The notes beneath the pieces are model-generated. The model was given only the letters and a program-made list of their open reading frames with translations. It was not told the DNA's origin and did not search any database. Made by a program: the position numbers and the translations under genes. Shown piece by piece: positions 1 through 38,742 of a stretch of 38,742 bases of DNA. The stretch comes from an uncultured archaeon (GTDB lineage: Archaea > Asgardarchaeota > Thorarchaeia > Thorarchaeales > Thorarchaeaceae). The stretch covers positions 1 to 38,742 of the forward strand of contig CAZSWP010000035.1 in the NCBI GenBank assembly GCA_964610875.1. The letters are read 5' to 3'. How positions within the stretch are numbered: position 1 is the first letter of the stretch; the number at the start of each line of letters is the position of its first letter.

Positions 1-63
1 ACCGTTGCTGGGCGGACTGCCTAGACTCCATGTCCAGGTTTGTCCAGAAAACAATCAACGGTT
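1..63 (+). repeat. Hairpin-forming repeat element, left copy (probable end of a multicopy mobile element/MITE)
   Basis: Positions 9-63 are the reverse complement of 38688-38742 except for 3 nt. Self-complementary: 1-7/56-62, 8-17/38-47 (3 G-T pairs), 21-26/32-37. It interrupts the aminotransferase gene. Confidence 0.85.
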
Positions 64-621
64 ATTGATCACAATGAGTTTCTGTATCCCATTATATGAT
101 AAGCAATTCCGTAATGCTTGTTCAAGATTATCATTAGTGAGTCTATAACCTTCACTAGATTCCGTCTTAATATAATGCACTCGTTTCCCCAAGATATGAG
201 CATGTTCATCATAGCTCACCCAACAAGGCGTTGGTAGGAAGAGTGGGCCTTTCAGAGACATCATTGTGTTGAAAAGAAGTGCCTTTGAACCGGGACCGAT
301 GAGGACTTGATCAGGCGTGTATCTCAATCCATAGATGCGTTCATAGAATAATGATACCTGTTCCCTGAGTGCAAGAACACCTTGGGTGGGCAAGTAACTG
401 CGTTGGTCAGCATTCTCACAAAGGGCATTCTTGATGAGTGGGTGTATTGGGAATGGGGACTCGCCAAATCCTAAGTGATATACCTGTTCGCCTGCTTTCC
501 GTTTTTGCAAAATCATCTCATTCATTGCCAAAGTTGCCGATGGTTTCATCCTCTCACTGACTGACGATGTACGCAAGAAATCACCTGACCTGTAATTAGA
601 ACTATTTTTTCGATTACTCAT
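55..621 (-). pseudogene. Class I/II PLP-dependent (aspartate-type) aminotransferase, 5' half only, truncated by the terminal repeat
   Basis: Motifs PSATLAMNE, HLGFGESPF, Y.PTQG..ALRE, IGPGSKALL, PTPCWVSY. Ends at LIVINN-R-stop where N(P)NNPTG is expected; the stop lies inside the repeat. Confidence 0.85.
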
Positions 622-3594: not shown

Positions 3595-4326
3595 GTGCAA
3601 AGAATGTCTGGTCCCCCTGTGGAAATAATCAATCTTGAAACAGTTCCTTTGACGAGGGAGAAGCAAAATATTCTGCTAGAAGAATTTGAGATCTATTTTA
3701 AAGCAACCAATACAACAATTAGGACGGTTCTCAAAAACCATCTCACCTCAGCGAGTAAAACTATTGAATTACTCAAATATCCTCTTGCAGAAAAACTCAT
3801 TTTCAGTGATATTGCGAGTGGGAGTGAAGAAACAAAACGAAGTCAGCAGATACTTCAATTCGCTAAACGTTTTGATTATGGCATTGTAACAAAGGTTGTT
3901 CAGCAAAATGCAAGCTCACCTGAACCTATCTATCATGAGTTTACAAACGCGTATCTTGAACAGTTTACAGCAGATGTTGTCAAGACTGCCAGAGTAGAGA
4001 TAGGTCGACACAGAAAGATGGCGAAGATAGTAAGGAGTATGAGAGATAAGACTCCGCATTTTAAGCGTGGCCGATTGATTCTATCTGGAATTTTAGTCTG
4101 GGTTGATGAAAAAACAGTGAGACTGATGACCACAAGCGGTGAACTTCTTCCACTTCCTTTTGACAAGCGAACCAGAAATAGAGAGAAAGACATACTCGTC
4201 AAACTAGAGGAAGAAGAAAAAAATGATAAGACAGGGAATAAAAGACTCTATGACCGAGTAAGAATAACATGGAATGATGAAGGTTACGCAAATGTGGATA
4301 TCCGTGTAGATAAATTCAGTTTATGA
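3595..4326 (+). CDS. TnpB/Cas12f-like N-terminal lobe (WED+REC) protein lacking RuvC
   Basis: Ordered TnpB-like elements: LTREKQNILLEEFEIYFKATN, helical REC, KTPHFKR, VRLMTTSGELLPLPF, terminal hairpin RVRITWNDEGYANVDIRV. No GVDLG RuvC-I motif and no zinc finger. Confidence 0.6.
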   Translation: MQRMSGPPVEIINLETVPLTREKQNILLEEFEIYFKATNTTIRTVLKNHLTSASKTIELLKYPLAEKLIFSDIASGSEETKRSQQILQFAKRFDYGIVTKVVQQNASSPEPIYHEFTNAYLEQFTADVVKTARVEIGRHRKMAKIVRSMRDKTPHFKRGRLILSGILVWVDEKTVRLMTTSGELLPLPFDKRTRNREKDILVKLEEEEKNDKTGNKRLYDRVRITWNDEGYANVDIRVDKFSL

Positions 4327-37965: not shown

Positions 37966-38637
37966 ATGACGGACTACTATTCTGAAGAACTCTCAGGATA
38001 TCGATTGAAGGAATGTTACGATATCGCATCAGCACGAGTGAAACAGTATTTAGATTCTGAGATCGATGAGATTAGAGCACACATTGGTCCTGATGATATG
38101 ATTCTAGAACTTGGATGTGGATATGGCAGGATTATCAAGAGGATAAGCAATGAGGCCAAATGGGTATTTGGTGTTGATACCTCATTAGTCAGTCTGATGT
38201 TAGCCAGAGAGATGCTTCTCCAACATGACAACTGTATCTTTATACAAATGGATGCCGGTGCACTTGCATTTTCAAATGACTTGTTTGATGTTGTATTTTG
38301 TGTCCAGAACGGGATTTCTGCCTTCTCTATTGACCCAAGAATGCTGATACGAGAGAGTCTAAGGGTAACTCGTGACGGAGGATTGTGTGTGTTTTCAAGC
38401 TATTCGGATGCCTTTTGGGATGAACGTCTCTCATGGTTCAAACATCAAGCCGAACAGGGGTTGTTGGGACCAATTGATATGCAAGCCACAGGAAATGGAA
38501 AGATTGTATGTGAGGATGGTTATGTAGCAACCACTTTCTCAGAGGTGGATTTTCAGAATCTTACTACCAGATTGAATGTCAAGAGTGAAATCTATGAGGT
38601 GGACCATTCCAGTGTGTTTTGTATCATCCAGAAATAA
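37966..38637 (+). CDS. Class I SAM-dependent methyltransferase
   Basis: ILELGCGYGR, GVD, MDA, FDVV, ESLRVTRDGG. Confidence 0.9.
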   Translation: MTDYYSEELSGYRLKECYDIASARVKQYLDSEIDEIRAHIGPDDMILELGCGYGRIIKRISNEAKWVFGVDTSLVSLMLAREMLLQHDNCIFIQMDAGALAFSNDLFDVVFCVQNGISAFSIDPRMLIRESLRVTRDGGLCVFSSYSDAFWDERLSWFKHQAEQGLLGPIDMQATGNGKIVCEDGYVATTFSEVDFQNLTTRLNVKSEIYEVDHSSVFCIIQK

Positions 38638-38687
38638 TACAAGAACTCACTCTGTAGAGTAGTGAAGTTGATTCAATACATAGAACA

Positions 38688-38742
38688 AACCGTTGATTGT
38701 AAACTGGACAAACCTGGACATGGAGTCTAGGCAGTCCGCCCA
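38688..38742 (-). repeat. Hairpin-forming repeat element, right copy (inverted, incomplete)
   Basis: Its reverse complement matches 9-63 at 52 of 55 positions (TTT versus AAA at 48-50). Confidence 0.85.

Follow-up and report, generated by a model that had tools for sequence, protein, structure and literature searches.

What are the 62 bases with which a Thorarchaeota contig begins, and why does nearly the same segment recur, inverted, at the other end of that contig? The window (i.e., the whole stretch of DNA that was analyzed, 38,742 nt) is the entire contig C35 of a 124-contig MAG that is 95% complete. A preliminary description treated these bases as a self-contained 62-nt element folding, on one specific strand, into one long hairpin. 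The bases and pairings that it listed for 1-62 were recovered as described, with one A-C mismatch (23/35) in the stem 21-26/32-37, whereas the strand specificity, the single long hairpin, and the 62-nt extent were not upheld. Bases 1-62 (plus strand) very probably represent the right end (RE) of an IS607-type TnpB transposon of this Thorarchaeota genome together with the 3' part of its guide-RNA (omega/reRNA) scaffold, the left part having been lost at the contig start. This reading is based on a family of dispersed copies with common borders, on the linkage of these copies to tnpB and tnpA, and on the covariation of their paired bases. IS607/TnpB transposons with a right-end guide RNA are an already known kind of element.

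The location of the segment at the extreme edge of the contig reflects the assembly. Many contig ends of the MAG have exact 55-mers in common, which is the signature of a k = 55 graph. One such 55-mer is shared by the right end of C35, an end of C39, and the start of C86, and it is flanked by different sequence in each, indicating that C35 broke inside a repeat. Base 1 is therefore the start of a contig and not the border of an element. The second copy (38688-38742, minus strand; 38689-38742 corresponds to bases 9-62) measures 54-55 nt because the contig ends there. It is a reverse complement of the first and, as previously described, differs from it only by AAA versus TTT at 48-50 (TTT in the second copy), inside the unpaired linker 48-55. 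The assembler was unable to cross identical multi-kb copies, so C35 starts and ends inside two inward-facing right ends, and the first 62 bases are the terminal piece of a multi-copy IS607-type transposon that was cut off by the assembler. The tnpB gene expected upstream of base 1 is absent from the assembly, so the full-length copy at the window start is a predicted one, and solo remnants of the same end also occur in this genome. The MAG by itself could suffice to reconstruct part of the assembly graph, as where the right ends of C35 and C39 and the left end of C86 join in one repeat.

An inverted arrangement at both contig ends, with one arm of exactly k = 55, might also be produced by an assembly, adapter, or vector artefact, or by the terminal inverted repeats of a 38.7-kb mobile unit. 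The probability of this explanation is close to nil: the element also occurs in the interior of contigs, with a different flank each time, both in this genome and in 16 further genomes of the family, and the inverted orientation is simply that of two right ends facing inwards. The same observation disposes of a match to a vector or adapter, which had been named in advance as a finding that would undo the earlier proposal.

An nhmmer profile built from nine copies and run on the genome detected 58 copies, which end in ACAAT(G/C)AACGGT and then give way to unrelated flanking sequence. The preliminary description had asked how many copies exist, where their borders lie, and whether a transposase or TnpB is linked to them; the answers are 58 copies, an AACGGT border, and both an IS607 transposase and a TnpB. 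AACGGT occupies the right border in 57 of the 58 copies, the terminal CGGT being likewise present in 57/58. Within the 62 nt, this right border, after T62, is the only real one; the supposed left border is lost with the contig start. The AACC (or GGTT) motif reported beside both window copies is indeed there, both copies being followed by T, but its reading as a target motif is not supported: it consists of the GGT end of the element plus one flanking base, since GGT is invariant (57/58) and the next base is T in only 31 of the 58 copies. The left end begins with GGGT in 55-58 of 59 junctions and is preceded by a mildly A-rich flank, and a GG(T) core is common to both ends.

About 42 of the copies constitute the right part of gene-less mini elements of 190-221 nt that begin with GGGT. 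Like MITE/PATE-type gene-less derivatives of TnpB transposons, these copies consist of no more than the two ends plus the scaffold region. A TATA-like box (CTTATATAC) is conserved in the mini elements about 55-62 nt in, upstream of the scaffold part (e.g., G000:C9:76071-76261), suggesting that each mini copy could express a guide RNA against its own flank. Unlike MITE/PATE-type copies, both window copies belong to a smaller, TnpB-linked subfamily (…ATCAACGGT, with a longer inner hairpin) and are not mini elements. Solo remnants of the TnpB-linked right end that lack an intact tnpB were observed at G000:C18:47898-47957 and G000:C4:79107-79168, the latter retaining decayed TnpB C-terminal codons.

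At C18:16148 of the same genome, the motif seen at the left end of the mini elements opens an 8.6-kb element (C18:16148-24729) composed of the left end, tnpA, an ORF of 1838 aa on the other strand, a tnpB-like ORF of 731 aa, and the hairpin. This tnpA encodes a 206-aa IS607-family serine transposase (NF033518, 175 bits) with Resolvase and MerR-type HTH domains. A second such element, starting at C18:60599, is interrupted by the contig end within tnpB. The transposases of both C18 copies match NF033518 (175 and 183 bits; cut-off, 110), PF00239, and HTH_17/MerR; these genes sit in the full-length copies of C18, outside the window. The right-end element at C18:24661-24729 overlaps the stop codon of the 731-aa TnpB-like ORF. 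The latter ends in …HADVNAARNI…, matches PF07282 (Cas12f1-like_TNB; 1.7e-13) and, below their cut-offs, the NCBIfam TnpB/Cas12f models (NF040570), and contains readable RuvC motifs (GADRG, YFENL, and HADVNAA). At the end of C18, the truncated TnpB shares 82% identity with the TnpB of G022:C491, a contig of a related genome; C18 may accordingly be continued by one of the four contig ends at which this right end occurs. The giant ORFs between tnpA and tnpB are 1838 aa (L015:123-5636, minus strand, equivalent to G000:C18:16819-22335) and 1764 aa (L016:75-5366, minus strand) in length, and neither has a match in Pfam (Pfam Cas1 included), NCBIfam, or PDB sequences.

The linkage to tnpB extends to other genomes. 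A BLAST search recovered the window-type element from ten genomes belonging to the same family; at 11 or more of these loci, a TnpB homologue overlaps it with its 3' end. A search for related loci with a single TnpB protein as the query found none. The closest relative copy (G022:C491) is 95% identical over the 62 nt and overlaps the tnpB stop. The TnpB ORF of G022:C491 ends in …HVHQGPSTVAGRTA-stop, and positions 1-24 of the window (plus strand), read in frame 1, give seven codons (TVAGRTA) and a TAG stop identical to this C terminus. Bases 1-24 would accordingly be the last codons and stop of the tnpB-like ORF that has been lost from the contig.

The preliminary description also proposed that the segment serves as a single-strand DNA hairpin for an HUH (Y1) transposase, as at the ends of IS200/IS605 elements or in REP sequences. 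The segment is indeed an imperfect palindrome near a transposon end and next to a TnpB gene, a situation known from IS605. ISDra2 (IS200/IS605) moves via a Y1 HUH transposase and single-stranded DNA, and it has hairpins at both ends and a TTGAT motif (PMC8612924); a Y1 transposase, paired end hairpins, and TTGAT were not found here. The 95%-complete MAG contains no match to the Y1 (HUH) transposase family PF01797, and both full copies carry an IS607 serine transposase instead. Their left ends (e.g., G000:C18:16148-16204) have two tandem CYRGAC-type hexamers only, with no matching hairpin, and the GG(T) core shared by the two ends is as in IS607. An IS200/IS605 or REP hairpin was rejected on these grounds, and we regard an HUH-type function of the segment as extremely improbable. 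The resemblance to ISDra2 is of another sort: as with its omega RNA (PMC8612924), the guide RNA would derive from the right end together with the 3' end of tnpB, its guide portion would be supplied by the flank, and homing to the emptied site is the proposed role.

The assignment to IS607 is consistent with the features that characterize this family, i.e., a serine transposase with an N-terminal MerR/HTH domain and a tnpB gene whose 3' end abuts the right end. A GG core at both ends, no duplication, and a scarless empty site were also found, in a small sample. IS607 TnpB systems with a right-end guide RNA and a pseudoknotted scaffold have been described, including CboIStron (10.1101/2023.11.20.567912), the ISFba1 reRNA (PMC11061315), and ISXfa1 (PMC10711439). 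In CboIStron, from C. botulinum, both ends carry a GG core, there is no duplication, the donor joint is scarless, and the target/TAM is TGGG (10.1101/2023.11.20.567912). Like these systems, the present element has a serine transposase with an N-terminal MerR-type HTH, tnpB as its last gene, a GG core, a G-rich target, asymmetric ends with short repeated motifs, and a pseudoknotted scaffold. Here, too, the scaffold extends over the 3' end of tnpB as far as the transposon border, beyond which the flank is the putative guide. The element differs from the studied IS607/TnpB systems in its Asgard host, in the size of its TnpB (about 730 aa versus about 390-430), and in the ORF of 1760-1840 aa, without a family match, between tnpA and tnpB. 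It also differs in that its scaffold has no Rfam match (RAGATH-18 included), in its dozens of gene-less mini copies, and in being known from sequence alone.

The folding of the segment was assessed both for the window and across the family. RNAfold applied to 1-62 returned the nested fold of the preliminary description (-24.9 kcal/mol, z = -3.4), but the opposite strand gives a fold of the same quality (-25.3 kcal/mol, z = -3.3). In 59 distinct copies there are 119 G-U cells versus 76 A-C cells, which is a weak sense-strand bias, and strand specificity of the fold is not supported. We then compared two models on an alignment of 60 copies (A1), comprising the window, the TnpB-linked copies of the genome and its relatives, and the mini elements. 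In the long-hairpin model, 81.7% of cells are paired; in the middle stem of that model (8-17/38-47), double changes are all but absent, and three pairs are broken in roughly half of the copies. In a pseudoknot model, 85.1% of cells are paired, compared with 24-48% when the partners are slid by 1-3 columns. In this model, 12 of the 24 pairs are changed on both sides (97 cells versus 43 in shuffles). The covariation thus supports the outer stem and the inner hairpin of the long-hairpin proposal and leaves its middle stem unsupported.

The pseudoknot model consists of four helices. Helix a pairs CUGGG at 8-12 (plus strand; its 3' strand) with a CCCAG upstream of base 1 that is missing from the contig (A1 columns 25-30/40-45). 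Its pairs vary in a compensated manner (C-G 29 and U-A 25; G-C 42, U-A 3, and C-G 2), and both RNAfold and RNAalifold select this helix unprompted when the upstream bases are present. The pseudoknot helix, which is the earlier outer stem, has its 5' strand at 1-7 (plus strand), in the loop of helix a, and its 3' strand at 56-62 (plus strand), ending in the GGT core at the transposon border; the 3' strand is supported by both the border alignment and covariation. This helix is paired in 90.6% of cells, with pair 7/56 occurring as G-C 21, U-G 23, C-G 10, and U-A 1, and pair 3/60 changing once to U-A. Several mini elements break its pairs 4/59, 5/58, and 6/57 without compensation. Helix b joins GGAC at 14-17 (plus strand) to GUCC at 42-45 (plus strand) and is paired in 96% of cells, with GGAC:GUCC, AGAC:GUCU, and GUAC:GUAC all observed. 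Helix c forms the inner hairpin (20-38, plus strand; 20-26/32-38, loop 27-31). Compensatory variants of it occur in TnpB-linked copies (CUUAGAC:GUCUAAG and CUUGGAC:GUCCAAG), and the hairpin is missing or shorter in some subfamilies. The linker at 48-55 (plus strand), which contains the AAA/TTT difference, is unpaired, and A1 columns 85-88 within it vary freely between copies. In the predicted RNA, helix a would close a loop that pairs with the last 7 bases as a pseudoknot, and helices b and c would form the hairpin between them.

Part of this covariation is open to a different explanation, in which the segment is a DNA signal only, i.e., a set of inverted transposase-binding hexamers in the right end from which no functional RNA is made. 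Four CYRGAC/GTCYRG hexamers (two forward and two reverse), spaced about 10 bp apart, fill positions 12-47, one of them including the GGAC of helix b, and two occur in tandem in the left end. These hexamers, which overlap helices b and c, are candidate binding sites for the serine transposase. Excision of CboIStron requires about 60 bp of the right end plus short inverted motifs (10.1101/2023.11.20.567912), and the weak G-U versus A-C bias and the equal folding of both strands also agree with a signal of this type. Since helices b and c coincide with hexamers also present in the left end, their covariation could reflect DNA half-sites for protein binding, and the two helices may serve for transposase binding in addition to, or instead of, RNA pairing. 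Helix a and the pseudoknot, in contrast, lie outside the hexamer sites and nevertheless covary, with pair 7/56 in four pair types and with many G-U pairs. The TATA-like box of the mini elements is placed upstream of exactly the scaffold part, and every TnpB system studied has a guide RNA at this same place.

The structure also continues into the coding region, with compensated synonymous changes. An upstream hairpin in the HADVNAA (RuvC-III) codons, located at columns 122-144 of an alignment of 12 TnpB genes (A2; e.g., L012:5111-5135), covaries at synonymous third positions (G-C 5 and C-G 4), which indicates a probable RNA structure embedded in the coding sequence. The structured region would thus reach at least 120 nt into tnpB, as expected for the scaffold of a TnpB guide RNA. 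Taking these observations together, we consider the DNA-only explanation unlikely. The suggestion in the preliminary description of a guide-RNA scaffold is, in contrast, supported in outline: the element lies on the sense strand over the tnpB 3' end, stops sharply at the border, and is followed by variable sequence. It also has a conserved structure with compensatory changes and a pseudoknot next to the guide, the overlap of helices b and c with the DNA hexamer repeats notwithstanding. An Rfam scan of six loci, a TnpB-linked copy included, gave no relevant match at E <= 1, RAGATH-18 included.

Besides encoding the end of TnpB, the proposed right end would act in two forms. The complete element would be laid out as the left end, the serine transposase TnpA, the giant ORF, the gene for a TnpB-like nuclease of ~730 aa, and the right end. 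As DNA, it would be the part recognized by the serine transposase; it carries the four hexamers, and its terminal GGT core also occurs in the left end (as GGGT). The corresponding RNA, transcribed in the sense of tnpB, would supply the 3' part of the TnpB guide-RNA scaffold, the guide being the 16-20 nt of flanking sequence that follow GGU. If the element behaves like the studied IS607 and IS605 elements, TnpB with its RNA would, once the transposon has been excised, cleave the emptied site (GGGT plus flank), so that the transposon is copied back. Transcription, TnpB binding, the TAM, and cleavage are all predicted here from the systems that have been studied.

In the window, the flank that may be read as the guide of the first copy is at 63-82 (plus strand), inside a split aminotransferase gene. 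The gene fragment at 58-621 (minus strand) encodes the N-terminal 186 residues of a class I/II aminotransferase and is split at 62/63; of the 361 positions of Pfam PF00155, it matches only 7-154. In orthologs, the open frame is 464-465 aa long, and the sequence goes on with …NYPCNPTG past residue 186, the point at which the window copy is cut. The C-terminal half was not found in the MAG, and the left-end partner of this insertion could therefore not be paired. The oddity of the window is thereby explained, with a contig that begins and ends in inward-facing transposon ends and a first gene, the aminotransferase, that was split by insertion. The right-hand copy is intergenic; the flank serving as its predicted guide (38669-38688, minus strand) lies 51 nt past the stop of a methyltransferase-like ORF (37966-38637). 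Neither the predicted guide 63-82 nor the reverse complement of 38669-38688 has another target in the genome. Second sites for the 58 predicted guides in the genome were limited to chance-level matches with 1-2 mismatches, none of them after GGGT.

The state of the empty target was examined with the mini elements. Their removal leaves the frame open on both sides in five cases, of which four need 4 (or 1) nt to be kept. For the insertion in C31, orthologs from four genera read …MEFMK-x-G-A-(R/K/I)-P-L…, with two residues at the junction versus two leftover bases in the split gene, which argues that the four bases GGGT are part of the empty site. From this one ortholog-checked case and the frame counts, GGGT appears to be the empty target, in agreement with the GG core and TGGG target of CboIStron. 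No orthologs for the mini-element insertion sites in C4 and C9 were found in 25 relatives.

Two further roles have been considered for the RNA. The preliminary description speculated that it is the partner of a RuvC-less TnpB-lobe protein encoded at 3595-4326 (plus strand), on the same contig and 3.5 kb away. A tblastn search detected no similarity between this protein and the eight TnpB-like genes of the genome, among them that of the RNA's own TnpB, and no link between protein and RNA was found. About 58 copies of the element are dispersed in the genome, and this one is present here only because a transposon landed in the aminotransferase gene; such a partnership is highly improbable. Alternatively, the scaffold might be a shared trans-acting platform, in which the 40-odd promoter-bearing mini elements and the full elements supply the oversized TnpB, and perhaps also the giant protein or the TnpB lobe, with guides throughout the genome. 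Its role would then extend beyond homing, e.g., to RNA-guided integration of the 8.6-kb element or to gene control. The copy number and the promoter-like box are what speak for this possibility, which we consider decidedly unlikely.

Within an IS607-type assignment, the element also resembles the aCas1-associated TnpB loci of Asgard archaea (Cas1H-Asgard-1/-2), for which aCas1 is proposed as the transposase (PMC10691335, citing Makarova 2020). Both are found in an Asgard host, combine an oversized TnpB with a giant neighboring protein, are flanked by repeats, and have, downstream of tnpB, a conserved T that is directly followed by variable sequence. PMC10691335 reports a conserved GTTCACTCA motif after the variable region of the aCas1-TnpB loci. 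Compared with this account, the present element has an IS607 serine transposase, no GTTCACTCA motif after the border of the family copies, and a giant ORF without a Pfam Cas1 or PDB-sequence match. The element thus adds a defined right end, border, core (GGT/GGGT), and pseudoknotted scaffold for a little-studied, oversized Thorarchaeota TnpB, all of which are needed to test or use this nuclease.

The distribution of the structure was surveyed with a covariance model of its nested part (R1). Of the 26 other genomes that belong to this family, 16 contain R1 matches, and these often number 20-31 or more scored ones per genome; across 26 other families of the phylum, from which 124 genomes were searched, there was none. 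Six further matches to an exact 22-nt motif (five with bacterial labels and one short sequence labelled Thorarchaeota) fail R1 and are at chance level. The exact 22-nt motif matches that fit R1 come from MAGs labelled Candidatus Thorarchaeota, uncultured archaeon, and, once, Promethearchaeota.
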